A stretch of DNA of 32,000 nucleotides. Origin: Candidatus Saccharimonadota bacterium (GTDB lineage Bacteria > Patescibacteriota > Gracilibacteria > Absconditabacterales > Absconditicoccaceae). Positions 1,502 through 31,909 of the stretch are shown in pieces (the first letter of the stretch is position 1; each line of letters begins with the position of its first letter). The position numbers and the translations under genes are program-made. The notes under the pieces were generated by a model, which worked only from the letters and a program-made list of their open reading frames with translations, searched no databases and was not told where the DNA came from. The DNA is taken from contig JAUIDC010000001.1 in NCBI GenBank assembly GCA_030429145.1, positions 30,001 through 62,000 on the forward strand, in the 5' to 3' direction.

Positions 1502-2074
1502 ATGCAAAAAAACATCGGATACAAAAAAACATTTACCCTCATCGAGATGCTCATTGTCATCGTCATTATTGGTATACTTGCAGCAGCACTTGTTCCAAGG
1601 CTAACAGCAGTGCAGGCAAGAGCGAGAGACAGCAAAAGGAAGGTTGATTTTAGAGCTATCTATAGTGCAAATGAGATCTACCTCATCGACAATGGTACCT
1701 ATGCACCAGTCAGTGGCTCATGTGCTATCAACACACTAGTATGATGTGTAGCACTCAGCTACAATAGTGCGCCATGGATCCCGACACTAACTGGATACCT
1801 AAACTCTATCCCTATTGACCCAGTCAATACCAATGGTGCACCTACCATCACAGGCAATTATTCATATATTTACTATAGAGTACTTGATACTCCTATCGAT
1901 ACCTACAGCCTTGTAACACAACTAGAAAATCAAAAAGACAATGACAGATGTGCGATACAGAACTATCAGTATACGGTCAGTTCTTGAGGAAGTACAGCCT
2001 CGCGATGTACACCTGCACTCGGTAATGCCTACACCTACGCTATAGCACCCAACATGGGCAATAGTAACTATTAA
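1502..2074 (+). CDS. type IV pilin-like protein, paralog 2, 190 aa
   Basis: MQKNIGYKKT|FTLIEMLIVIVIIGILAAALVPRL. Extended past TGA 1742-1744 and one further TGA to TAA 2072-2074. Motifs IPIDPVN and TQLENQKDNDRC. Confidence 0.85.
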
Positions 2075-2088
2075 CTCCTTATAACCAG

Positions 2089-2685
2089 ATGGGATATAGA
2101 AAAGCCACAGCTTTTACACTCATAGAGATGCTTATTGTGATAGTCATAATAGGTATTTTGGCAGCGGCTTTAGTCCCTAGGCTAAGAGATATACAAGAAA
2201 GAGGGAGAGATACAAAAAGAAAGGTTGATATCCGTCAAATCCGTAACGCTATAGCTATATATTATGCAGACAACTCTTCTCTTCCTCAATATAAACCTCA
2301 GACCTCTTGTGGATGATCACAATCGATCCTTGCTGTCAGTTCTGGCACATGTTGATGACAATGGTTGACCACTTCTACGTCTTTTTATACTATTATGTCT
2401 TCTGTCCCCGTCGATCCTGTCAATCAATGATATCCTCACGCAGTATATGGAGATAGCAACTATATATATACCTATCTCAACGGAACATGAAGTATATTTG
2501 TCACCCCAGATAGGGATTATCTGCTTGCCACTCAACTAGAAAACACCAAAGATCCCGATAGATGTGGTATAACACCTTACTATTACCTACACACGGCATC
2601 TGCAACATGAGGCCCTTGGTGTCCTCCACATTCTGGATATCTTGACACAAATAGAAGTCAAAGAATCTATGCTCCCAACTATTAA
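2089..2685 (+). CDS. type IV pilin-like protein, paralog 3, 198 aa
   Basis: MGYRKATA|FTLIEMLIVIVIIGILAAALVPRL. Six in-frame TGA, ends TAA 2683-2685. Motifs VPVDPVN and TQLENTKDPDRC. Confidence 0.85.
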
Positions 2686-2711
2686 TCTTTATATACTAGA
2701 GCTGTTTTACT

Positions 2712-2924
2712 ATGAGTACAGAAAAAGCAAAAGGTGCATTGTTTGGAACTCTGAGTGAGTTCTGGAAAGCAGGCACACAAGAGCTTAGTAAAAATATGTC
2801 ATCGGTGATGACAACGCCTTCGGCGAAGAACGCTCCCAAGAGTGGTAATTTTATCTCGCCAGAGTTAGAAAGACGGGAAAAAGATTTGATAGAAGAAAGA
2901 AAAAATACTATTATCAATGAATAA
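2712..2924 (+). CDS. hypothetical small protein, 70 aa
   Basis: Uninterrupted ORF ending in TAA, same strand as its neighbours. No recognisable domain. Confidence 0.4.
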   Translation: MSTEKAKGALFGTLSEFWKAGTQELSKNMSSVMTTPSAKNAPKSGNFISPELERREKDLIEERKNTIINE

Positions 2925-2947
2925 TCTGAATGCTGTAATTACTCATT

Positions 2948-3868
2948 ATGACCATAGAGATGAACAATAAAATGTTGAAGAAAGGTTTTGTGATACTTTT
3001 AGGAGCTGCGCTTTACGTGCGAGGGCTTTATCATGGCTACCTCGATCCACAGCGATGAGGCTGGATGTTTGCGACTGCACTCCTCTATATCATGATGCAC
3101 TACGTAACGCTGTCACGGAGTGATACCGTGCATAAGTATAGATGGTTTGTGCTTATGTTCGTATTGATCATCACTGGGATAGTCATCACTCGCACAGGAA
3201 GTGTCTGGATAGGTTTAAGTGTCCTTTTGCGGCACGCAGCACTACGAGGAGTTATGCACTCGCTCGAGAATATACTCTCGACCCGCAAGAAGTTTAAAAA
3301 GAGTGTGTTTTTTCAGGCAGGTGGAGCACTGTTTTCTATCTTCTTTACCCTCAGCTTCATCACTGCATTTATCGGAAGAAACGAGAAGTTTAACCTCACC
3401 TGTGATGATATCTATGATGCAGGGTTTGCTGTGGTTAACTATAGCGAAGAAAAGTTTAATGTTGGCTGGCACCAGATAGAAGCTTGGCAGGCTCACATGC
3501 TCGGAGAGGTAATCTCTGGTACAGGCGATGAGGTAGAACTACCAGAAGGACTTTCATGATTTGATGATGGGAGCTTTGCAGCGATGCTTCAGACCTACAA
3601 ACAGCAGTTGATTGATGAGACGATAGCTAAGCAGAAAGACGTGAATCAAAGAGTATGTCAGGTCTTTGTTGATCAGATCAAAGATCTTTATCAGAAGCCT
3701 TCATTTAGAGTGTCGGTCATCATCTTGATGTTCTTAGTTATCTCACCTCTTCTTAGGATCACACTCTTCATCATCAGTGGTATCAACATCCTACTCTTTA
3801 TGATACTGAAGAAGCTTGGAGCATATACGATCACGAAGGAGACAGTCGAAGTCGATAAAGTAGAATAA
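2948..3868 (+). CDS. hypothetical multi-pass membrane protein, 306 aa
   Basis: Track ORFs 3065..3559 and 3584..3868 share a frame and join across TGA 3557-3559. The frame stays open upstream through TGA 3056-3058 to ATG 2948 (alternative starts 2960, 2972, 3065). Several hydrophobic helices. Confidence 0.6.
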
Positions 3869-3917: not shown

Positions 3918-4514
3918 TTAATAGTACCTCCTAAATGTTCCAACAACCTTGCCAACTATCTCCATGTTGTGTCTTGGATAGATTGGTTCAAAGTCATCAT
4001 TGGCAGGTTTAAGATACTTTCTGCCTTGGCTGTCTTTCATGAAATATTTCACGGTAAAGGTATCAACTTCGTCTACCACAGCAACAACCACATCACCTTC
4101 CGAAGGATTTTTCAGTGCCTGGTCGACGATCACCACATCTCCATCCATAATGCCCGCATCTTTCATACTATCCCCTTTTACCTTCACGAGAAAAGTCGTC
4201 TGAGGCTTTCTGACGAGAAATCCCTGGATATTGATCTGGTCTTGCACCTCATCAGTCGCAGAGGTTGGCACACCAGCTTGTACGTACTCAAATAGTGGCA
4301 ATGCCCCAAGTTTCTCTGTAGCTACATAGTCATCACCAAGCTTCATCACATAACCCTCTTTCTCAAGTCCTTTCATAAAAAGGTGAATACCACTCTTCGA
4401 AGCGAGACCAAACATCTCCATCAGAGTCGTATACGATGGGATGCTATAATTCTCAAAGTAGTACTCCTTGAGCCTCATCAGACGCTGCTGAAACTTATCA
4501 TAGATATCGTGCAT
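3918..4514 (-). CDS. lexA: LexA repressor (wHTH plus S24 self-cleaving peptidase), 198 aa
   Basis: N-terminal LexA-type wHTH (SIPSYTTLMEMFGLASKSGIHLFMKGLEKEGYV), Ala-Gly cleavage site in EYVQAGVP, catalytic GDSM and a downstream TVKYF lysine. No in-frame TGA; stop TAA. Confidence 0.9.
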   Translation of the reverse strand: MHDIYDKFQQRLMRLKEYYFENYSIPSYTTLMEMFGLASKSGIHLFMKGLEKEGYVMKLGDDYVATEKLGALPLFEYVQAGVPTSATDEVQDQINIQGFLVRKPQTTFLVKVKGDSMKDAGIMDGDVVIVDQALKNPSEGDVVVAVVDEVDTFTVKYFMKDSQGRKYLKPANDDFEPIYPRHNMEIVGKVVGTFRRYY

Positions 4515-4530
4515 AGTTGTACGATTAAGA

Positions 4531-4550
4531 TATAGAACGGTTGTTCTATA
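4531..4550. promoter_or_regulatory. candidate SOS (LexA) operator in the lexA promoter
   Basis: TATAGAAC-GGTT-GTTCTATA, with 8+8 perfectly inverted arms containing the Gram-positive-type GAAC-N4-GTTC core. Lies 17 nt upstream of the lexA ATG. Confidence 0.7.
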
Positions 4551-4580
4551 TTGTTTTTTTGAGGGAATGCAAGGGGAAAA

Positions 4581-5231
4581 TTACTGCAGACTCAAGCCAT
4601 ATTTTTTCATCCACGCAATAGCTTCTTCTTTATTCGGATACAAATCATCAACGACCTTCCAAAACCTCGGAGAGTGATTCATCTCACGCAGATGTGCCAG
4701 CTCGTGACAGATGACATACTCTATAATACGCTCTGGCATCTTGATCAGCTTCCAGTTGAGCCCGATATTCTTTTTGGATGAACAGGTTCATCGCTTGGTT
4801 TTTTGATCTCTGATATAGGTGTTGTTGTATGAGAGTTTGTGTTTGGCTACGATCTGTTTCGCTAGAGGGACGAGATATGATTTGGCATATGATTTGTATC
4901 GAAGCTTTTGTTTCGTGGGAGTCAAAAGATCTATACCGCTGGTAATCTGTTTCTGCTCGTGATCGATATCTACTCTCTTCTGGAGCGATTCATCATGAAT
5001 AAACTTATATTGCTCTCCATGGAGAAGAATATTCCCCTGCTCCACCGTGAATGCCCTCTTCGCATTTCTCATCTTCTCCAAAGCTTTGTGGATCCAAGGT
5101 TTTCTGCTTTCGATAAATTTCTCTACGTAACTATCGGTTACACGCTTGGGCACCGACACGATCACGCTTTCGTCAGCGAGAACTCTGATGCGGAGAGATT
5201 TGATGGATTTGCGTTGGATGGTGAGATGCAT
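4581..5231 (-). CDS. DUF45/YgjP-like zinc metallopeptidase (M48/SprT-like fold), 216 aa
   Basis: Track ORF 4788..5231 continues through TGA 4788-4790 into ...TCSSKKNIGLNWKLIKMPERIIEYVICHELAHLREMNHSPRFW (HExxH motif). Stop TAA 4581-4583. Confidence 0.8.
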
Positions 5232-5296
5232 CTATTGTTGATCAACAATGTGATAGAAAAAACAATTCAAGTACTTACAGAATTCCTATAATAAAT

Positions 5297-6448
5297 TTAG
5301 ATATTTTCATCTTCATTTAAATCCTCTTCCTCGCTGATATCGCTGTATGCCACATCTACCTTATAACGCCCTTCCTTTATTTTTGTAATTTTCAAACTAT
5401 CAAACCCTGCTTTAAGTAGTTTATCATAAGTTAGTAGCTCTTTTTCTTCAAGTCCTAATATCCCCCTTAGTAGCCATCCTTCTAGTGCATTATTGGGATT
5501 AGTCATAAGTGCTTTTCTATTTTCTTGGCACATCTTTGCACTCAGTATTTCTCCAGTTGGAGTTTCCAACAAAAATATAGTATCTCTATCCGGGAAAAAA
5601 TTAGAGTTCTCTTTGTGTATATGAGCAGGGACTGGAATATATAATTCTCCACTAGCTCTTGCTCTTCCTCCAGCGTTCCATTGATTGAGTCCACTTTTTT
5701 CAGCCACCACTTTCTTATCTTTATTACTCTGTTTAGTAGAATATAAAGGCAACAAAACATATTGATTTCATTCATTGACATCTGCAAACGCTCATAGTTT
5801 CTCTTCTTCAAAAAGTCTACTGAGCAACTCATAAGGGTCCTCTAATATGCCCACTTCTATTTTAAATGCATTGGCAGGAGTGACAAACTGTTTGTATAAC
5901 GTACTTTTTGAAGTATTAAACTGATATATGTCTTTTCATTCTTGAAAAGAGATACCTGATTTAGTTTCTTTGATATTACGAATATTGTCTTTATTTATTT
6001 TATTATATGGAGCTTCAAAAACGTGAAGAGAACCCTCTGCTCTTGCGATACAATGATATAAACTTTCAGTAATTCCATAAAGATTATTTGCTATCTCTAT
6101 TCTTTCATTTCTATAATCTGCAAGAAGATAAGCCAAATCTTTTGGGTCTTTATCTTTAAAATTTTTAGAAAGCTTATTAAATTCAGCTATTTTCTCAGTG
6201 GACTGACCTTTGGCAGATATGAATGTCTTGATTCATATCCCTAATCAGTCAAACTTTGCATCATATGCATTATCTTTTCTAGATAAGTTTTCTGCTTTAA
6301 AAGATCTACAGAAAATATTTTCGGTGATACGATAGTTAAGAATAGGTATTGGATTTTCACTAAAAAGCTTTGAAAGTGATCACATGATTTGTAGTAGTTT
6401 ACGATAATCATGTAGCTGTTCATTAGATTGAGACAAAAAGAAGCTCAT
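5297..6448 (-). CDS. type II restriction endonuclease candidate, 383 aa (family uncertain)
   Basis: Track ORFs 5297..5755 and 5936..6136 (both TTG artefact starts) join in one frame through 6 TGA back to ATG 6446-6448, with TAG upstream at 6452-6454. C-terminal SGLNQWNAGGRARASGELYIPVP resembles, from memory, the B3-like DNA-binding domain of NgoFVII/BfiI-type enzymes. N-terminal half has ...SRKDNAYDAKFDGLGIGIKTF, a possible PD-(D/E)xK-like core. Starts 14 nt after the MTase stop. Confidence 0.65.
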
Positions 6449-6462
6449 CAGCTATATATAAT

Positions 6463-7422
6463 TTATAAAACTTTTGCCATACATTCTGCAACTCTTTTCA
6501 TTAATGGGACAGTGACTGAATTTCATATTTGGTAATATAGTTTGCTATCTGCCAATGGAGGCAATATATAATCTTCTGAGTATCATTGAAATCTCAAACA
6601 TTCTCTAGGCACTAACTTCCTTATTCCAAATTTGTCCTTAATTAAAGGAACATTATGTCATCCTGTACCCATATTTGCAGTCAAAGTAGGACAAACATTA
6701 TTTTTATTTTCTCTGACATAGTGCCTTCTTCGCTGATATACAGTGTCGGCTGATTTAATAGACTTTACTAATTCTTTATAATACGGATGAGTTTTTCAAT
6801 AATAATATTTATTATCTTTTTTGTCATGATCAATAATATCCTTTATAGTTTTCTGAAGAGTCACTTTTTGGGGGAATTTAAAATTGGCATAATCCGGAAC
6901 CTTCTTTATATTAAAACCAACAATTATGACTCTCTCTCTGTTCTGGGGAACATTGGTATATTCCATAGTATTTAATACTTGATAGATGACATGATATCAT
7001 AGATCTTTCAAGACTTTCAATATCGTTGCTAAAGTTTTCCCTTTATCATGATTAATGAGTCATTTAACGTTCTCTAACAAGAATGCCCTAGGTTTATGAT
7101 ATTTAATTATTCTAGCAACATCAAAGAATAAAGTCCCTCTAGTATCCTCAAATCCTTTTCTGTGACCCGCAATACTAAATGCCTGACAAGGGAATCCTCA
7201 CAATAATATGTCGTGAGACGGAATTTCTTTTTCTTTAATCTTTGTAATATCTCAATGAGGAATTTCTCAAAAATTAGCCTCATATGTTTTTTGTACATTT
7301 GTATCAAACTCTGATGAAAAGACACATTTTGCACCCAGACTCTCAAACCCTAACCTAATACCACCAATACCAGCAAATAAATCTATAAAAGTTAATCCCT
7401 CAAGGGTATCTTTCTTAACCAT
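6463..7422 (-). CDS. DNA (cytosine-5)-methyltransferase, 319 aa
   Basis: All canonical m5C motifs present: [18 protein letters not shown] [G][17 protein letters not shown][G]L, VIII QNRERV, X QI[G]NSVTV. Nine in-frame TGA, several on motif glycines. ATG 7420-7422, TAA 6463-6465. Confidence 0.95.
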
Positions 7423-9235: not shown

Positions 9236-9407
9236 ATACTTTATTGGTTTTTGATTGTTTACGTATTGATATAAGGCATTCTCTTAAGTGATATAGCCTG
9301 TTAATGAACCGTCGAACTATTATTCGACAACCAAATTATAACAAATAAATTGTATTTGTCAATGTTTGTGAAGAACGAATAGGTTCCCATTAGAACTCTA
9401 TTTTTTA

Positions 9408-9435
9408 TTGACTTATATGCTTAAGTTGTTATAAT
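9408..9435 (+). promoter_or_regulatory. sigma70-like promoter for the 9456 gene
   Basis: TTGACT (9408-9413), 16-nt spacer, TATAAT (9430-9435). Confidence 0.5.
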
Positions 9436-9455
9436 TAATTTCTAAAACAAATATT

Positions 9456-9797
9456 ATGAAAATTAAGAAAATACTATTATGGGCAATGGTACATGGAGAC
9501 TACCATCCCCTACAAACTGAAAAAGAAAAGCAAATAAACGCTTACATGCCGCTCATTAGCGCGCTTTTCCCAGGAATAGACTATTATTCCATATCTGGAT
9601 TCAGTCAAGTACAGCAAGACTATCTGGTCCCAACCTTAAAGAAGCTATTCCCAGAGCTCATCGAAATGTCTGCTGATGATGTCTCTGCTACCGAAAAGGT
9701 AGAAATCAAAGAGCCTTTTCTACCATGTAAGGGTTATGAACACCAGGATGATCCTAAATGGAAAGAAAGACTTGATGAGCTTTTAGAAGCTGCTTAA
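9456..9797 (+). CDS. hypothetical protein, 113 aa
   Basis: Uninterrupted ORF ending in TAA, with its own promoter and terminator. No domain recognised. Confidence 0.55.
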   Translation: MKIKKILLWAMVHGDYHPLQTEKEKQINAYMPLISALFPGIDYYSISGFSQVQQDYLVPTLKKLFPELIEMSADDVSATEKVEIKEPFLPCKGYEHQDDPKWKERLDELLEAA

Positions 9798-9856: not shown

Positions 9857-10102
9857 ATCAAAAAAATAACCACCCGAAAGCGATTATTTTTGGAGCTCTT
9901 ACTCCGCGTCAATTCGAACAAATTTACAAAAGCATACTTTCCATGCCTCTTCACCATTCAAGGCAACTTTTTAGGGTTTATGCAGAAATAGCTCCTAAAG
10001 GCAAAGATATTACTGATACTCTATCAAAGAAACAGCTTGTACTCTATGGACTTTCTGAAAATGAAGACTCCCCTTTCTCTATAAGGTAATGAGATTTGAA
10101 CA
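9857..10102 (+). repeat. copy R1 of a ~245 bp repeated module (hairpin + start-less conserved ORF + conserved 3' tail)
   Basis: Aligns with 11669..11913 and 12924..13174. Open frame ...FGALTPRQFEQIYKSILSMPLHHSRQLFRVYAEIAPKGKDITDTLSKKQLVLYGLSENEDSPFSIR*. No ATG/GTG/TTG upstream of the conserved region; the first ATG is at 9943; stop 10087-10089. Hairpin 9866-9887. Tail ...TAATGAGATTTGAACA. Confidence 0.8.
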
Positions 10103-10113
10103 ATAAGTATGTA

Positions 10114-10141
10114 TTGACAGATATGTATATTTTATTATAAT
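10114..10141 (+). promoter_or_regulatory. sigma70-like promoter for the 10176 gene
   Basis: TTGACA (10114-10119), 16-nt spacer, TATAAT (10136-10141). Confidence 0.55.
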
Positions 10142-10175
10142 ATATAAAGTATTTATACATTACCACTAATATCAC

Positions 10176-11594
10176 ATGTCTACTCCAAATAAACCTCATG
10201 ACAATCCTGAATCCCAGATAGTTGAAAATGATATTAAAGCTAAATTAAAGCAGTTTAGAGAAAAAGCACCAGGTAAAGAAGAAATTTTATATGATTTTGT
10301 AGATTTTCTTTCTGTGTATCCATATCTTAATGATGAATGTGTGCCAGGTGGTTTCTTAGTAGCTATGGCTTTAGCTATGCATGACCTTGCTGAAGGCAAA
10401 TCAAATGGTGAAGAGATTACACACCCAATTATGAACTATCCACATGAACAAGTGAGTACATTAATCAATGAAACACCTACTATTGCCGAAGTGTGTTTCA
10501 GTGAGGAGTTTGCTGAAGATGTAAAAACTTCTTTCGAGAATGTAAAAAAGCTTATGCTAGAAAAGCAGACAAATCAGAGATTACTAGCTGAGACTTTGGA
10601 AGGTGGTGGTGAACTCCTGCAACTTTTATGAGGAACAGGATTTGAAAGAATAAATGACGAAACTGAAGATACAACAGAAAGTATAACATTTTCTGAACAG
10701 GAGTATTTTGATACAGCTCATGAAATTGCAAAATATATCATTGATTTCATTGAAAACAACGAAAATATCCATACTTCATGAAATAATAACCTATCTGAAT
10801 CTCCAAACCCATTCTACAACCAGACGAAGAGTGGATTCTTTCTCGAATACTCGTATAGCACTCCGAGTAATTTATGGACTCCATGGGGAAAATGGAAATT
10901 AACAAGCAACTGAGTAGCTACAAGTGGGAAAGTTGACCTTTCCAAAATGCTTGAGGGACTCTGAGCTACATTATTCATAGAAGAAGGAAGCAATAAGATG
11001 GGAAGCTATGGACCAGTATATAAGCTTACACAGTTTAATGGTCAACCTTTGCCAAAACCTACAGAAAAGACAAAAGAAGAATATACACCATATAAGGACA
11101 TAAAGGAATCTTGGAAAAGCTTCGATGCTCTATATCTAGAAAGACAGATTGCAGAAGCAGCTAAAAATGCTCCAAAAGAAGCACCTATAGATACTTTCAA
11201 ACTTATTTCACTACTTGATGCTTATGAAAATGACTCTCTCTCTGAAGATGAGATTAAAGAAAGAGATGAGCTACTTACTGCAATTACTGTAAAAAATAGA
11301 CTAAGTTATGTCATGGGTTCGTGAAGAGATAAAGAGTTTGTACATATTTTACAGTATCCTACCAATGTGAGACATAAATCAGGGAACTCTAATGACCTCT
11401 GAAACGTAGAATACAATAAGGATGAAACAAAATTAACAGATACTGTTAATGTTGATAATGAAGAAATACAACTTATTGCTAGATATATTGGAATTTGTCT
11501 CCAGAAATATGGAAGTGCCTATGCTGGGGCAGGCAAAGACAATGATAGCAAATTATATGTACTCTATGAAGCAGATGACCTAATCAAGTTCTAA
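10176..11594 (+). CDS. hypothetical protein, 472 aa, no recognisable domain
   Basis: Track ORFs 10176..10631 and 10998..11324 share a frame. Reading by hand, the frame is open throughout with 6 TGA, ending TAA 11592-11594. Track ORF 10708..10902 is out of frame. Confidence 0.7.
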
Positions 11595-11616
11595 TTAATT
11601 TTCATTACTCATATTA

Positions 11617-11645
11617 AAAGGCAACCTCAAGGGGTTGCTTTTTTA
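11617..11645 (+). terminator. intrinsic terminator
   Basis: GCAACC-loop-GGTTGC (11621-11638), followed by TTTTTT. Confidence 0.65.
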
Positions 11646-11668
11646 AATACAGAGAATAATATTTGAGT

Positions 11669-11913
11669 ATCAAAAAACCGCACCCGAAAGCGCGATTTTA
11701 AGTTAGCTCCTAATGAGAGAAGTTTCGAACAAATCTATCAAAGTATAGTTGATATGCCGATTATACAAGTAAGGAAAATATTTTATGTGTATACAAACCT
11801 CTTTGGAACCGACAATAAAGTAATTAGCAACCTTACCGAAAGACAGTTGGTACTATATGGATTAGACGAATAGCGACTATACTCTTTTACTATAGCTCGA
11901 CGATATAGGAACA
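11669..11913 (+). repeat. copy R2 of the repeated module
   Basis: Frame ...LAPNERSFEQIYQSIVDMPIIQVRKIFYVYTNLFGTDNKVISNLTERQLVLYGLDE*. First ATG at 11754; TAG 11871-11873. Hairpin around 11675-11700. Tail ...CGATATAGGAACA. Confidence 0.8.
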
Positions 11914-11951
11914 TGTATTATATTCTGATATACATGGGGTTTATTATGATT

Positions 11952-12329
11952 CTATCAAATTCTTTTCATAATATCAATGAATGTTATATTTCCATCTTGT
12001 TTACCCTTTGCTAGAAAATTTTCTATTAATGCCTCTCTAAATTCAGGATTTAGTATTTTTTCTCTTAGTACAATATCATCAAATACTCTCAATGCATCCA
12101 TTGATTTTGTAATAAGATCATGATCATTATTTTCCATAGCTTGCTCTGAGGGAGCAATAATCGCACTAAGCAGTCAGTCATTACGAAAATGCGTAAATAC
12201 TATCTCAATTTCTTTTGCAGATCGAGAACTTACTTCTAGATACTTTCTTAAAAATTGTTCTTTTTCTTGGTCTGATTGTAATTTATCAAAAGCTCTAATT
12301 ACTTTTTCAGAATTTCCGTTCAAGAACAT
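11952..12329 (-). CDS. hypothetical protein, 125 aa
   Basis: Track ORF 11955..12137 extends upstream across TGA to ATG 12327-12329 (MFLNGNSEKVIRAFDKLQ...). Its terminal TGA (11955-11957) is followed immediately by TAG 11952-11954. Confidence 0.55.
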
Positions 12330-12446
12330 TGTAATATTATAAACAGTAAATTTTCTTCTTTAGATATTATATAATCACCTTCAATTAAATCAAGAAAAAA
12401 ACCCCGCCATAGGCTAAGGGATTACTGCTATTATAAGATCTACAAC

Positions 12447-12869
12447 CTACTCTTCATATGGTAGAAACCTCATAATATGTTCTTCTGTCTTAATTAAGAC
12501 CATCATTTTTTTCACTTTTTTCGCTTTGAGCTTTACGAACAAAGGTAATACCATCTTGGAATTGAAGTTGTTAGCAAGATGAGGATGTGGAGTTCCAAGG
12601 TCTTGCTCCACATAGCCAACTTCTAAGCCATTCAATTTATCACCCATGATATTCATAGCTAACATTACCATGAAGTGATCGTTATACCTTTCGTTCTCGC
12701 TTTCACCATAACGAAGGATTTCAATATCTATAGCAGCTATTTCATCGACATCATATGTGTCAACAAAATTAGAAAATGTTTTTCTCAAGTCTGCTATTAC
12801 GTCGAACAAAGCATTACCGCCTTGGTCCCAATCGCATGGTTCGATTAATATGTGTTTTATTTCAGCCAT
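12447..12869 (-). CDS. hypothetical protein, 140 aa
   Basis: Uninterrupted ORF ending in TAG, with the promoter below upstream. Confidence 0.55.
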   Translation of the reverse strand: MAEIKHILIEPCDWDQGGNALFDVIADLRKTFSNFVDTYDVDEIAAIDIEILRYGESENERYNDHFMVMLAMNIMGDKLNGLEVGYVEQDLGTPHPHLANNFNSKMVLPLFVKLKAKKVKKMMVLIKTEEHIMRFLPYEE

Positions 12870-12890
12870 AATCTATTTGTTTTAGGCACA

Positions 12891-12919
12891 TATTTTAATC
12901 AATTAAATGTATATGTCAA
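12891..12919 (-). promoter_or_regulatory. sigma70-like promoter for the 12869 gene
   Basis: On the minus strand: TTGACA (12914-12919), 16-17 nt spacer, TAAAAT (12891-12896). Confidence 0.5.
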
Positions 12920-12923
12920 TATA

Positions 12924-13174
12924 ATCAAAAACGAAAAAAGATTCCCCGTGAGGAATCTCTTTTGGAGCTGTGCTACCGCAGCAATTCGAACAAATATATA
13001 AAAGCATAAAGGGAATGCCAGTAGTTCAGACAAGGCAACTTTTTAAGGTTTATACCCAATATATACCTAATGGTAATAAAATCATAGACAAACTGTCTGA
13101 GAAACAGCTTGTTCTATACGGATTTAAGGACAAGTGGGACACATAATATACTATAGCCTAATGAGATATGAACA
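12924..13174 (+). repeat. copy R3 of the repeated module
   Basis: Frame ...FGAVLPQQFEQIYKSIKGMPVVQTRQLFKVYTQYIPNGNKIIDKLSEKQLVLYGFKDKWDT*. First ATG at 13015; TAA 13144-13146. Perfect 7-bp hairpin AGATTCC/GGAATCT at the left edge. Tail ...TAATGAGATATGAACA. Confidence 0.8.
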
Positions 13175-13190
13175 TATAGTTAGCATAGTT

Positions 13191-14216
13191 TTAATGTTCT
13201 GCCTCTATATTTTGTTTAATTTCTTGTAGACGATTATAAAGCTTTTCAAGTAATGGAAGCTTTTTATTTTGGTGCTTACATATTCTTATAATTTTGCCAA
13301 TGAAATGTTCTTCATCGCTATGAATATAATGTTGGTCTTTTGGTTTCTTATAATACTGATAGTATGTACTAGGATATTTATCTGCAAACTTATCTATTGC
13401 ATTCTCTATATCTTCCTTAATCTCATTAAGTTCCATATGAGCCAATTCATCTCAAGCTATATTGTTATTAAATTCTAATAGCTCATTATAGACTTCCTGT
13501 TGTGCATCTGCTCCATATTCATCTTTAAATGCTTCTAATGCCTTTTTTGTTGGTAATTTATAAAGAACAGATATTGTATTGATAAATGCGTTAATGTATC
13601 CCTTTTTTCTCTCTTCTTTTCTTAGTATTATACTATCCATTCATTCAAACCAGTGATTTTGATGAGGTCATTGATTTAATGCACTAGTTAATGTATTAAT
13701 AAGTTCTCTGTCACCAGTAATAGGTGATGGTTTTGCTAGTGCTATATCTACCTTATCTCAACCATTCGTCTTAAAAGAAAAGTAAGGAACGGCTTGAGTA
13801 GGATGAGCCGTATTCAATAATACTTGTTTTATCTTATCTCTTATGCCTATACCGTTTTGGAAAAAAACCATTTTATTAGCTTTGTCTTTTATAAGTTTTT
13901 CTGGCAGACACGTTTTTAATAGTTCTATATCTGTTGCTGTACAGCATATAAGCACTACATCAATATCATCATATGATATTGGTAGGTTAAAAGCATTAAA
14001 ACATTCTACATTATGTTTTAGAGAGTATTCATCTTTGTATTGTCTTCAATTTAGTGAACAAACATACACATTTTGACCTGACTCTGTTAATAATTGATGC
14101 CATCACTTTCATAAATCTCAAAATCCTATAATCACAAAATTATGTTTTTTAGAAGACATTACTTCTATACTCTCTTTTTTATTCTGTTCTTGTAGTTGTG
14201 GCTCTAAATATTTCAT
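13191..14216 (-). CDS. NAD(P)-binding oxidoreductase, ketopantoate reductase (PanE/ApbA)-like, 341 aa (or 322 aa from ATG 14159)
   Basis: Track ORFs 13191..13445, 13452..13640 and 13758..13955 share one frame, joined by about 8 TGA. Rossmann HNFVIIGF[G]DL[G]K[G]W; FFQNGIG matches the PanE HNG region; C-terminal RKKGYINAFINTISVLY and SDEEHFIGKII resemble the ApbA_C motifs. Confidence 0.6.
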
Positions 14217-14337
14217 ATATTTCTTAGGATAATAAGTCTTATATATATTATATGCCAAATTCAAATATAGTCAAATTATGACTTAATTTTTATATATAAC
14301 TAAAAATCGCTAGAACCTAGTAGGTACCAACGATTTT

Positions 14338-14414
14338 TGGAGCAGGCGACGAGACTCGAACTCGCAACCAACTGCTTGGAAGGCAGTGACTCTAGCCAAT
14401 TGAGTTACGCCTGC
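14338..14414 (-). tRNA. tRNA-Gly (anticodon UCC), CCA encoded
   Basis: Hand-folded cloverleaf, 77 nt: acceptor GCAGGCG/CGCCTGC, anticodon arm ACTGC-CTTCCAA-GCAGT, T arm GCGAG-TTCGAGT-CTCGT. Confidence 0.85.
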
Positions 14415-14439
14415 ATGACGTATATGTATCAATAATTAA

Positions 14440-16264: not shown

Positions 16265-16356
16265 GCGTGAAAGTATAAGTATTTAGTGTTTTTTTTCAAC
16301 AGACAGACACAATGTTTTATCTTGCATGCATACACGAAAAACATACAAATAACTTT

Positions 16357-16899
16357 ATGAAAAATCGCGAATCATTCACACTCATAGAGATGTTGATAGT
16401 GATAGTCATTATCGGTATTTTGGCAGCTGCTCTTGTCCCGAGATTGACATCAGTGCAGTCAAGAGCAAGAGACACAAAACGTAAAACAGATTTCAGAAAT
16501 ATATACAATGCTGAAACTATTTTCAAATTAGACAATGGTAGATATGCGCAGACATGAGCTGCTATCTTCTATAGTTATAATGTCTCAACTTGGTTAGCCG
16601 AGCTCTCTGGAGTCATGAGTAGCATCCCTGTAGATCCGATCAACAATACAACAAACAATAGAACTACTGGCGGTTACAATTACTACTATTCGAACTATGA
16701 TGGCGTGGGCGTTGCAACGAGTTATCAACTCAATACACAACTCGAGAATACAAAAGATCCAGATAGATGTGAAATCAAGGAATATCTCTATCCTCACTCA
16801 AGTTATGTGAACGGGCTACCACGATGTCCGCAAGTTGCTCTACCTGCCACAAGATATCAGTATCTCTTTGATCCGCTCAATCTGAGTAAACATCAATAG
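16357..16899 (+). CDS. type IV pilin-like protein, paralog 4, 180 aa
   Basis: MKNRES|FTLIEMLIVIVIIGILAAALVPRL. Track ORFs 16312..16557 and 16615..16899 share a frame across TGA 16555-16557. IPVDPINN and TQLENTKDPDRC. An upstream ATG at 16312 is possible but gives an atypically long leader. Confidence 0.85.
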
Positions 16900-24282: not shown

Positions 24283-26103
24283 CTATCCGTTATCCGCCTT
24301 AAGTAAGGCATCTTTTTCCTGTTTTTTTGCAAGAGCTCTTGCTGATTCGGTCAGATACTTCTTTCTAAGACGAATATTTTTCGGCGTTATTTCTACGAGC
24401 TCGTCCTGTCCAATATAGCCCAATGCATCCTCCAGCGTCAAGTGAACAATAGGATCGAGACGCATAGCTTCATCATTTCCGCTATTGCGAACGTTAGTGA
24501 GCTGCTTATTGACTGTAAGGTTGACAACTAGGTCTCCTCCTTTGAGGTGCTCCCCAACGATCATACCCTCATAGATTTGCTGTGCTGGGTCAACAAAAAT
24601 AGGTCATCTCTCCTGGAGCTTAAAGATACTGTAGTTCATCACGCCTCCAGTATTTCCTGAGATCATTGATCCTACCTGACGCTTCGCGATCTCACCTTTG
24701 TATGCTTCATAATGAGAAAATGATGAGTACATGATCCCCTCGCCTCTCGTCAGCAAAATAAACTCTCCTCTCAGTCCAAGTAGTCCTCTTGTAGGCACCT
24801 CAAACTCGATCGTCGTCAGACCGTTTTCTGATTTCATCGACTGCATCATACCCTTTCTATTTGCTACTGTCTCTATGATGGCACCCGCAAGGTTATCTTC
24901 TACGTTAACTATGAGTTGTTCTATGGGTTCGAGCTTTTCACCATTTTCCATCTTGAAGATTACCTGTGGTGCTCCCACTTGTAACTCCCATCCCTCTCTA
25001 CGCATCGTTTCAATAAGTACAGACAAGTGGAGCTCTCCTCTTCCTGACACGACAAAACGCCCGTCTTGATTCTCTACCTTCAATCCTACGTTTGTCTCAA
25101 GCTCCTTATCGAGTCTCTCTGCAAGGTTTCTGGTCGTCATATACTTCCCTTCTTTTCCTGCAAATGGACTATCATTGACCAAAAACTCCATACGAAGTGT
25201 TGGCTCATCAATACTGATTGACGGCATAGGCTCAACATCTCACACACCTATTGTTTCACCAACGAAAATAGTAGGTATTCACGCAATCGTGACGATGTCA
25301 CCGCATCTCGCCTCTTCGCTCTCGATACGTTGTAGTCCCAGTGTTGTAAAGATTTTTGAAATTTTTCCTGTTCTTGTTTCTCCTTCGTTAGAGATAATAG
25401 TCACCTGTTGTCCGACTTTTGCTGTACCCTCATAGACACGACCGATACCAAGTCTACCAAGGAAGTCGTCATATCCCAGGTTTGCGACCTGCATACGAAA
25501 TGGCTTATCTGAATGATTTGGCGCCTCTGGCACGTGTGCAAGGATAGCATCGAAGACTGGCTTCATATCCTTTTGCTCATCTTCGAGGTTTTTCATCGCA
25601 AAACCATTTTTAGCACTCGCATACACTACTGGAAAATCTGCCTGCTCGTCGGTTGCGCCAAGCATGATAAACAAGTCAAAAAGCATGTTAATCACCTCCT
25701 GTGGTCTCGCAGTCGGTTTATCAATCTTGTTGAGGATTACGATCGGTTTGAGCCCAAGTTCCAATGATTTTTTGAGGACAAATTTGGTCTGAGGCATCGG
25801 GCCCTCATATGCATCTACAACGAGTAATACAGAGTCGACCATACGAAGCACACGCTCCACCTCACTTCCAAAGTCGGCATGGCCTGGTGTATCGATAATA
25901 TTGATAGTATCACCCTCATACTGCACTGCAGTGTTTTTTGCATAGATAGTAATACCCCTCTCACGTTCCTGGTCGTTGTTATCCATCACCAAGTCCTGTC
26001 ACTCAATTGCTTTGAGTGTTCCAGAGTATTTTAAAAGCTGGTCGACAAGAGTCGTTTTTCCGTGGTCAACGTGAGCAATAATTGCAATATTTCTAATAGC
26101 CAT
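24283..26103 (-). CDS. typA: translational GTPase TypA/BipA, 606 aa
   Basis: Track ORFs 24283..24564, 24604..25227 and 25279..25992 plus the N-terminus [24 protein letters not shown] form one frame with 3 TGA. Collinear with E. coli BipA as I remember it. Two of the TGA align with Gly in E. coli (..AITG.., ..QDRG..). Confidence 0.95.
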
Positions 26104-31303: not shown

Positions 31304-31909
31304 TTACTGGCCTAAATCGCTTTTTACATATAATTCACCACAATTTATTCATCCATAGCACGTGTGCAAACATGAGGTATATCAACCGCCACAAGCTGTA
31401 TTCACCTGGCATCACCAAAATGTTCATCACGCATAATCAGTATACCAGTGATAGTCAGCGACTGCACATCTATCAGCATCTTTGGTATTTTCTAATCTAC
31501 TTATCAAACTAAATGTCAGCCCATTTTTGAAAACATTGTTGTACATGTACGTATATCATCATGTCACTACAACCATATTACTACCAGGAGCTACATTATT
31601 AACTGGATCTATTGGCAAGGAAGTCATGATGCCTGTTAGTTGAGGGAACCAGTTCGTTCCAGTTGCAGTATTGATGAGACAAGAACTATTGACAGAACAG
31701 CCCCCTGCTAAAGGATAAATACTCTGATCAGTCTTATAAATCTGTATTGCATTGTATAAAGAGGTCATATCCACTTTTCTTTTAGCATCTCTTGCTCTCT
31801 CTTGTACATCAGTGAGTCTTGGCACAAGGGCCGCCGCCAAAATACCGATAATCACAATGACTATCAGCATCTCTATCAACGTAAATGTTTTATTTTGTTT
31901 TATCACCAT
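31304..31909 (-). CDS. type IV pilin-like protein, paralog 5, 201 aa
   Basis: MVIKQNKT|FTLIEMLIVIVIIGILAAALVPRL. Track ORF 31559..31909 continues through 7 TGA (including two TGA-TGA doublets) to TAA 31304-31306. LPIDPVNN and SRLENTKDADRC. Confidence 0.8.

Follow-up and report, generated by a model that had tools for sequence, protein, structure and literature searches.

A stretch of 32,000 nucleotides from a Candidatus Saccharimonadota bacterium (contig JAUIDC010000001.1 of assembly GCA_030429145.1, positions 30,001 to 62,000; referred to as the window) contains three homologous modules in direct orientation, R1 (9857-10102), R2 (11669-11913), and R3 (12924-13174), each consisting of a hairpin, a short open reading frame (ORF), and a conserved tail. 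R1-R3 are very probably attL-type scars (i.e., left attachment sites) of elements that were serially inserted at the end of a tRNA-Gly gene, each of which kept approximately the last 57 codons of its own integrase gene (referred to as int(C)). In the region 9857-14343, three integrative elements, now decayed, appear to stand in tandem at the 3' end of tRNA-Gly(tcc). A single mechanism, in which a recombinase gene spans its own attP (the attachment site of the element), would account for ORFs that lack a start, are constrained in their codons, and lie behind hairpins.

The three direct copies of ~245 bp given in the preliminary description of this DNA were recovered at the same positions by alignment and tblastn: their peptides, which were as first read, found each other with E values of 1e-13 to 1e-21 (~52 kb searched), while tblastn with each of the three peptides gave no further match in the window below an E value of 0.02. 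The plus-strand frame with the FEQIY motif (9913, 11724, and 12985) was the only stop-free one of the six frames in all three copies. The differences by codon position (1/2/3) numbered 13/10/27 between R1 and R3, 24/17/26 between R1 and R2, and 22/15/31 between R2 and R3, and the ratio of nonsynonymous to synonymous differences per site (pN/pS) in this frame (0.41-0.67) was below that of each of the other five frames in every pair of copies (0.53-2.35, mostly near or above 1). Among nine copies, comprising these three and six from other genomes, pN/pS was lower than 1 in 35 of 36 pairs, and codon position 2 was the least changed in every pair. The third-position bias, from which selection on a protein had been proposed, was confirmed by a codon-aware comparison, and coding-type substitutions were found only in the frame that is continuous with the integrase (see below). 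The genome uses code 25 (TGA = Gly): the genes at 10176-11594, 13191-14216, 6463-7422, and 24283-26103 are open under this code only and are fragmented in table-11 ORF lists, and a TGA in the hairpin loop of R3 is not a stop for the same reason. The module peptide was predicted to form a compact four-helix domain (predicted local distance difference test score (pLDDT), 80.6); a Foldseek search of the domain against the PDB gave no match, and nothing significant was found for the R1-R3 peptides in Pfam or PHROGs.

Hairpins formed by the minus-strand RNA of R1, R2, and R3 had fold energies of -10.5, -16.1, and -13.7 kcal/mol, respectively (plus strand: -4.6, -6.5, and -11.1 kcal/mol), each with a 4-nt loop followed by a U-run, and the hairpin at the tRNA-Gly junction (14302-14343) gave -17.0 kcal/mol on the minus strand. 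The preference for the minus strand noticed earlier was thus reproduced with fold energies. The interpretation as a minus-strand terminator was correct, except that it appears to be the terminator of tRNA-Gly and not primarily that of the neighboring protein genes, the stops of which do lie 39 and 17 nt away from R2 and R3.

Several searches were performed for relatives of the module in other genomes. The three peptides gave no match in a word-indexed search covering 5.8 billion proteins, no relatives were returned by a metagenome scan with protein alignment, in which the single pattern chosen was too narrow, and viral-contig scans with the module DNA pattern and the tRNA pattern yielded only high-GC tRNA matches and nothing relevant. 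A scan of species-representative genomes gave one locus, L001, in the 1.1-Mb chromosome of a metagenome-assembled genome, which had the same hairpin, TTTTGGAGCT, ORF, and tail, together with two more degraded copies. An exhaustive profile search (1.84 billion proteins) found nine true relatives (66-130 residues), in which the module was always C-terminal and the N-termini before it were unrelated. The contigs of these relatives contained more than a dozen module copies from at least five genomes, one of which is named Candidatus Absconditabacterales by NCBI; further copies, for which a search had been proposed, were thereby obtained, and the only longer contexts were recombinase C-termini. R2 belongs to a second subfamily of int(C) and shares 66% amino-acid identity with a truncated copy in L001 (L1b). 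The tails described earlier were found as such, with the consensus TATAGC-N10/11-TNGAACA, and lie at a fixed distance of +186 to +190 from the core (see below), also in other genomes.

The module frame ran upstream without a stop into 45-130 codons of an integrase C-terminus in L001 (L1a), L003, L012, L014 (L14a), and L015, and these five in-frame junctions represent at least four integrase lineages. The fusions of L003 and L012 were without a hairpin, and those of L1a and L14a read through it. The upstream codons shared an end pattern, such as ...IFFSNIIVDNQKRLHIAVKPLFKELFVAN|GAPTQCQFEHIY. When the upstream integrase parts were used as queries, fragments with another ending, ...VAN|GADDETRTRNQLLGRQ, were obtained, and this ending is the translated reverse complement of tRNA-Gly(tcc) (window 14338-14416, plus strand, TGGAGCAGGCGACGAGACTCGAAC...). 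Five integrase ends (L016, L020, L026, L029, and L030) ran into antisense tRNA-Gly and stopped after 18 codons; therefore, the conserved TTTTGGAGC at the start of the module corresponds to the tRNA 3' end (GCTCCA) and the terminator on the opposite strand. The target gene is tRNA-Gly, of which the modules hold only the last bases (..GCTCCA) and the terminator hairpin. A scan of metagenome contigs with a 40-mer of tRNA-Gly gave nine loci. In L016, the integrase ORF runs directly into tRNA-Gly(tcc), after which comes the Met-Val-Glu-Asp-Thr-rpsT cluster that is also present in the window.

The nature of the recombinase was indicated by L020, in which an ORF of 577 codons (1857-3590) contained Resolvase (PF00239; E value of 4e-22) and Zn_ribbon_recom (PF13408; E value of 1e-7), both above the Pfam cut-offs. 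Its catalytic and DNA-binding domains are together, in a resolvase and zinc-ribbon architecture with a coiled-coil region, and this ORF encodes a full-length large serine recombinase. The last 18 codons are antisense tRNA-Gly (...HLNDAKVSS|GAGDETRTRNQLLGRQGL), and the C-terminus matched that of P0001/L015 (...IQGDKVSS|GAVSPKEFEHIY...), where the module comes next. In L026, only the last 115 codons of an L020-type integrase are kept beside the tRNA. Two contigs show the same integrase lineage next to different glycine tRNA genes, tRNA-Gly(tcc) and tRNA-Gly(gcc) (L029, 1111-1184; L030, 741-814); the integrase target appears to be not a single gene but the 3' part that glycine tRNAs have in common.

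Twenty junctions were aligned on AGC, and their arms (45 nt on the left and 40 nt on the right) were compared. AGC was the only sequence common to all 20 (GGAGC, TTAGC, and TCAGC variants), and the bases beside it varied (GG, TT, or TC before it; T, A, or G after it). R1 matched the empty site of L023 in the left arm (33/45) and not in the right arm (7/40), and matched the integrase-module junction of L003 in the right arm (33/40) and not in the left arm (9/45). Similarly, the integrase-tRNA junction of L016 shared the left arm with L003 (42/45; right arm, 7/40) and the right arm with L023 (40/40; left arm, 13/45). The crossed arm pairs were at chance level (7-13 matches). The four junction types, attB (B-B'), attP (P-P'), attL (B-P'), and attR (P-B'), are related by arm exchange, the attP-type junctions having been taken from integrated or tandem contexts. 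In the attB-like junction now present in the window, ~25 nt of the arm (TCGCTAGAACCTAGTAGGTACCAAC) recur, by eye, beside module L14b in L014, and an ungapped comparison of the two arms gave only 15/45 because of a register offset. The hairpin arm of L11b, which has no integrase fragment, was the same as that of L14a (41/45 nt).

TCGAAC was found 12 nt past AGC in all eight tRNA arms, within the T-arm, including the attB-like junction of the window (AGC at 14341), and 17 nt past AGC in all 12 module arms (exact in nine and otherwise a variant of one or two bases), where it forms the F-E-Q/H codons. In the attB of serine integrases, the motif for the zinc-ribbon domain is 5 bp closer to the centre than in attP (Rutherford et al. 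2013, PMC3783163), and the spacing of 12 versus 17 nt matches this shift. The rule was applied to the right half-sites only; no clear mirrored motif was seen in the left half-sites. In R1, the first ~25 nt of int(C), up to TCGAAC at 9914-9919, double as the P' half-site, and the near invariance of TTC GAA CA in nucleotides is explained by the double use of the first ~25 bp of the module, as coding sequence and as this half-site. At ~70-105 nt to the left of the core, the sequence coding for the integrase C-terminus also has this TCGAAC motif, in another reading frame (TTTCGAACATC, translated as F-S-N-I), in four lineages (L003, L016, L001, and L014). In some tRNA-Gly genes, the final bases are ..GCTAA (core TTAGC) and CCA is not encoded (L028, ~4118; L030, 741); these ends match the core type of R2 (11705) and L012, and elements of this type appear to replace the end of the tRNA gene when they integrate.

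From these junctions, the following mechanism is proposed. The recombinase would be a large serine recombinase whose reading frame crosses its own attP. The crossover region would be AGC within TGGAGC, ~57 codons before the integrase stop, TGGAGC being the terminal GCTCCA of the tRNA on the other strand. In the attP form, the integrase would end in a small helical domain, GAxxPxxFEQIY...LVLYG, and the first ~25 bp of this C-terminal segment, up to TCGAAC, would also be the P' half-site. Integration at attB (hairpin-AGC-tRNA) would yield attR, in which the integrase body is joined to the tRNA and the protein ends with 18 antisense-tRNA residues (GAGDETRTRNQLLGRQGL), and attL, in which the old tRNA terminator hairpin is followed by the orphaned, start-less last ~57 codons and the conserved tail. 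The integrase frame of L1a and L14a passes an A-run, a hairpin, and a T-run ahead of the core; P arms with their own terminator hairpin, such as these, may rebuild a hairpin-AGC-tRNA site on integration, which would admit the next element beside the tRNA and leave the newest element nearest to it. The open frame through all three hairpins of the window would follow because elements bring their own terminator inside the integrase frame. Integrase genes may later have been deleted, leaving units of module, cargo, and hairpin; such decay by deletion is suggested by L026 (115 codons left) and L11b (an arm without integrase). The coding signature would then stem from selection while the segment was the C-terminus of an integrase, and not from translation in situ.

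The decay of integrative elements at tRNA-Gly has to be weighed against several points. An integrase gene or integrase fragment was not found in the window by tblastn, and the array was read through homology with other loci. No single contig had one intact element with both ends, no circular attP was seen, and the integrase was truncated at each integrase-module junction found. Only the L020/L015 lineage was proven to be a serine recombinase. For the remaining lineages, a PF07508 fragment near the module in L001 is weak evidence of the same kind of enzyme. Their C-terminal fragments gave a weak match to PHROG_95 ('integrase'; best E value of 0.002, 4/6 members), showed no similarity to the L020 protein by hhalign or BLASTP, and yielded only coiled-coil noise in PDB sequence searches, NCBIfam, and Pfam. 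The modules of L005 and L001 have no tRNA in the 20 kb of sequence covered. Furthermore, hairpin-bearing P arms are B-like, and, by the canonical serine-integrase model, the resulting site would be attL-like and inactive. The three ORFs of the window are intact despite the lost integrase genes, which needs either recent decay or a function in situ.

The last point would be met if the module encoded an independent small protein, e.g., an excision or directionality factor beside attL, with a non-canonical or copy-specific start. This explanation, which we consider very unlikely, agrees with the intact ORF and the purifying-type substitutions in the three copies of the window, with the predicted compact fold, and with an in-frame ATG upstream of the hairpin in L5, L11b, P0002, P0003, and P0007. 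R3 also has an in-frame GTG at 12970, contrary to the earlier statement that no copy has a start codon upstream of FEQIY. However, neither a start codon nor a ribosome-binding site is conserved among the copies, the N-termini of the called proteins are unrelated, conservation starts exactly at the tRNA-type core, and the frame goes upstream into an integrase C-terminus in five loci. The internal ATG that was regarded as conserved, and as the start of a small-protein family, is replaced by an Ile or Val codon in L1a, L5, L11a, L11b, L12, and L14b, six of the copies from other genomes, and the in-frame upstream stop, which was thought to be near, precedes the conserved part by 13-36 codons (the one before R2 ends the upstream gene).

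Serial site-specific insertion had also been considered in the preliminary description, correctly in kind, with the ORF assigned to the 3' end of a target gene; the ORF instead appears to be the 3' end of the recombinase gene of the element. In favor of displaced 3' ends of a chromosomal protein-coding target, each replaced by an element-borne copy, the repeats have one orientation and separate unrelated gene blocks, a pattern known for islands in protein genes. Nevertheless, no full-length chromosomal gene with this C-terminus was found among the 1.84 billion representative proteins, the only longer contexts were recombinase C-termini, no housekeeping gene ending in FEQIY...LVLYG was found upstream of such an array in related genomes, and the left edge of the repeat is the tRNA 3' end with its terminator; a protein-coding target is thus highly improbable.

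We give as little credence to a non-autonomous dispersed repeat (similar to miniature inverted-repeat transposable elements (MITE) or repetitive extragenic palindromic elements) with an open frame arising by chance. Several diverged, intergenic copies per genome with a hairpin at one end would fit such a repeat, whereas codon-position bias is unexpected for non-coding DNA, and homologues of the two arms occur apart from each other, in attB- and attP-type junctions. All copies, in the window and at least five other genomes, had the same orientation to the tRNA-type core (one other complete genome was sampled, over 20 kb). Consistent with the earlier failure to see terminal inverted repeats, a window-wide repeat scan listed no inverted-repeat pair bracketing any module; flanking or target-site duplications were not seen on reading the module ends, for which no dedicated test was made. 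MITE and insertion-sequence ends were rejected on the same grounds, namely the absence of bracketing inverted repeats in the scan and the separate attB and attP homologues of the arms.

Other candidates were also dismissed. Silent C-terminal cassettes kept for a full-length locus, another earlier suggestion, had no support, there being no integrase or fragment in the window, and pilin-type silent cassettes were rejected because the module peptide is unrelated to the pilin paralogues of the window. The substitutions were not adenine-specific, as in repeats of diversity-generating retroelements, and no reverse-transcriptase gene was noticed nearby, although none was specifically sought. The peptide is not hydrophobic, unlike that of a type I toxin-antitoxin system. 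Integron gene cassettes were excluded since no IntI is present, the hairpin is the terminator of a tRNA gene, and each boundary is a 245-bp module that includes a coding segment. A crossover in the hairpin loop was rejected because the stems are perfectly complementary and covary between copies, unlike hybrid sites. R2 shares its frame with the upstream 472-codon gene and is parted from it only by the TAA stop of that gene (11592-11873); this was taken as a coincidence because R1 and R3 do not have this pattern, and a read-through or frameshift extension of upstream genes was rejected since the upstream frame is shared by R2 only.

The features of the array are summarized in Table 1.

Table 1. 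Features of the putative tandem array at tRNA-Gly(tcc) in the window.
Feature	Position	Strand	Basis or remark
R1, B arm: displaced tRNA-Gly terminator hairpin	9862-9891	-	A-run, stem, UUCG-type loop, U-run; fold; match with L023 arm
R1, core AGC within TGGAGC; presumed crossover region	9894-9896		TGGAGC is the reverse complement of the tRNA 3' end GCTCCA
R1, int(C): last 65 codons and stop of recombinase ORF, without own start	9892-10089	+	Sole open frame; coding-type substitutions
R1, tail CTATAAGGTAATGAGATTTGAACA	10079-10102	+	~+189 from core; same motif and position in copies from at least five genomes
Element 1, cargo: 472-codon orphan gene with in-frame TGA (Gly)	10176-11594	+	Code-25 ORF; no Pfam family
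R2, hairpin, B-like arm	11674-11699	-	Minus-strand fold
R2, core AGC within TTAGC	11705-11707		Same variant in tRNA-Gly of L028 and L030 and at the L012 junction
R2, int(C): 56 codons and stop	11703-11873	+	TCGAAC 17 nt past AGC
R2, tail CTATAGCTCGACGATATAGGAACA	11890-11913	+	Common to L1b in L001
Element 2, cargo: two orphan genes (125 and 140 codons)	11952-12869	-	No Pfam family above threshold
R3, hairpin, B-like arm	12934-12963	-	Fold; minus-strand terminator-like site
R3, core AGC (TGGAGC)	12966-12968		Junction alignment
R3, int(C): 60 codons and stop	12964-13146	+	Open frame, substitutions, junction alignment
R3, tail CTATAGCCTAATGAGATATGAACA	13151-13174	+	Repeat alignment; position relative to core
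Element 3, cargo: 341-codon PanE/ApbA-like oxidoreductase	13191-14216	-	Pfam PF02558 and PF08546
attB-like junction now present: terminator hairpin (14302-14338), TGGAGC, tRNA body	14302-14343	-	Fold; AGC at 14341
tRNA-Gly(tcc), integration target	14338-14414	-	First gene of the cluster Gly-Met-Val-Glu-Asp-Thr, then rpsT

The cargo gene of element 1 has its own promoter, TTGACA-16-TATAAT (10114-10141). Locus L011 is syntenic with the window from tRNA-Gly rightwards; to the left of tRNA-Gly, it has a haem-oxygenase-like gene, which takes the place of the PanE/ApbA-like gene of element 3, then a module, cobW with a nicotianamine-synthase-like gene, and a second module. Since different genes lie between the modules of L011 and those of the window, the inter-module blocks are variable cargo, in line with the earlier idea that the genes between copies may vary as cassettes. 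The flanks of L023 match the YgjP-like gene and the tRNA cluster of the window; this locus has no module and an empty site, aaaaaaagaccacccgaaagcgatcgtttttGGAGC-tRNA, with a hairpin of the same type as that of R1. A restriction-modification pair (5297-7422, minus strand; NgoFVII-like endonuclease and C5 DNA methylase) is located between the YgjP-like gene and the array, and L023 has desaturase-like, HAD-like, and transporter genes in this position; therefore, the variable region may exceed the module array.

Some further observations were made around these loci. An inverted repeat of 51 nt (9403-9453 and 12874-12924; 73%) comprises the promoter and leader of two orphan genes, one outside the array (9456-9797, plus strand) and one inside it (12447-12869, minus strand), the upstream regions of which are related. 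In L001, a duplicated N-terminal fragment of an ABC-F ATPase gene followed by a fragment of a Recombinase domain (PF07508) is found at 5990-6881, behind the intact ABC-F gene (4289-5932), and resembles an integration scar of separate origin, here at a protein-coding gene; a module is also directly upstream of an ABC-F gene in L005. Five type IV pilin-like paralogues with N-terminal FTLIEMLIVIVIIGILAAA (902-2685, three genes; 16312-16899; 31304-31909, minus strand) were the source of the largest direct and inverted repeats of the window (D1 and I1-I4).

A broader proposal, which we put forward tentatively and hold to be doubtful as a whole, is that this system is a bacterial serine-recombinase counterpart of the archaeal 'suicidal' integrases, with a C-terminal swap, int(C) segments that can be rejoined, and a self-renewing landing pad. 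The four-helix domain would be exchanged for the 18-residue antisense-tRNA peptide on integration, and the enzyme might thereby toggle between a form competent for integration and a prophage form; control of directionality would then be built in and would not depend only on a separate directionality factor. No candidate for such a factor was identified. Excision from any upstream attL could rejoin orphan int(C), from which chimeric integrases and composite elements would arise. Hairpin-bearing P arms would renew attB, and the end of tRNA-Gly may thereby be a self-perpetuating landing pad for cargo in reduced code-25 genomes. If the C-terminal swap does alter activity, it would represent a new directionality control in serine integrases.

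The reading of R1-R3 as attL-type scars would extend the attP-spanning architecture to a large serine recombinase, a Gracilibacteria/Absconditabacteria host with TGA = Gly, and a tRNA gene target. It also supplies candidates for the attP and attB of new serine integrases, in which the core is very short. In poorly annotated genomes, the combination of hairpin, TGGAGC, FEQIY-type ORF, and tail may serve as a marker for variable cargo islands, which is missed by island finders based on tRNA fragments and by standard gene callers.

Among known systems, the closest in operation are phage Mx8 and the 'suicidal' integrases. Mx8 Int is a tyrosine recombinase, and the attB of Mx8 overlaps a tRNA-Asp gene. 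In Mx8, attP is inside int, and integration makes a recombinant gene with a new 3' end (PMC6070905); the integrases of Mx8 and SSV both extend across attP (Islander paper, PMC4383910). As with IntP and IntX of Mx8, attP in the present system lies within the integrase ORF, and the integrated and free enzymes would differ at the C-terminus (PMC6070905, PMC4383910). Unlike Mx8, one lineage here is a large serine recombinase, the core identity is ~3 bp, the host is a candidate-phylum bacterium with code 25, and arrays of orphaned 3' ends accumulate. In the 'suicidal' integrases of SSV1, pTN3, and pT26-2, which are described as exclusive to archaea, att is inside the gene, and integration partitions the gene between the ends of the element; the pieces persist beside tRNA genes, and excision would rebuild the gene (PMC8371274). 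The archaeal enzymes are tyrosine recombinases in which the catalytic part is split from the N-terminal part, whereas only the last ~57 codons are lost here, with the catalytic and DNA-binding domains united in L020. Since these domains stay together after integration, the enzyme may remain active. As far as its recombinase can be judged from sequence, the present system appears to work like Mx8 and the 'suicidal' integrases without being a member of their families, the tyrosine chemistry of which it does not share.

The domain architecture, the minimal shared core, and the 5-bp motif shift are those of phage serine integrases (A118/LI, Bxb1, phiC31, and SPbeta). According to the Islander paper, no serine recombinase is known to have a tRNA gene as its target (PMC4383910), and the present system differs from the phage large serine integrases in its tRNA target, in an ORF that spans attP, and in the extra C-terminal four-helix domain. 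No report of a serine-integrase ORF spanning attP was found in limited literature searches, which is not proof of absence. On the other hand, the arrangement at tRNA-Gly resembles that of Islander-type islands: an intact tRNA gene is abutted, a displaced piece of the tRNA end is found at the far boundary, and islands stand in tandem at one tRNA. It differs from them in that only ~6 nt of the tRNA, together with the terminator, are displaced, far below the detection of tRNA-fragment searches, and in that the recognisable repeat is the integrase's own 3' end.

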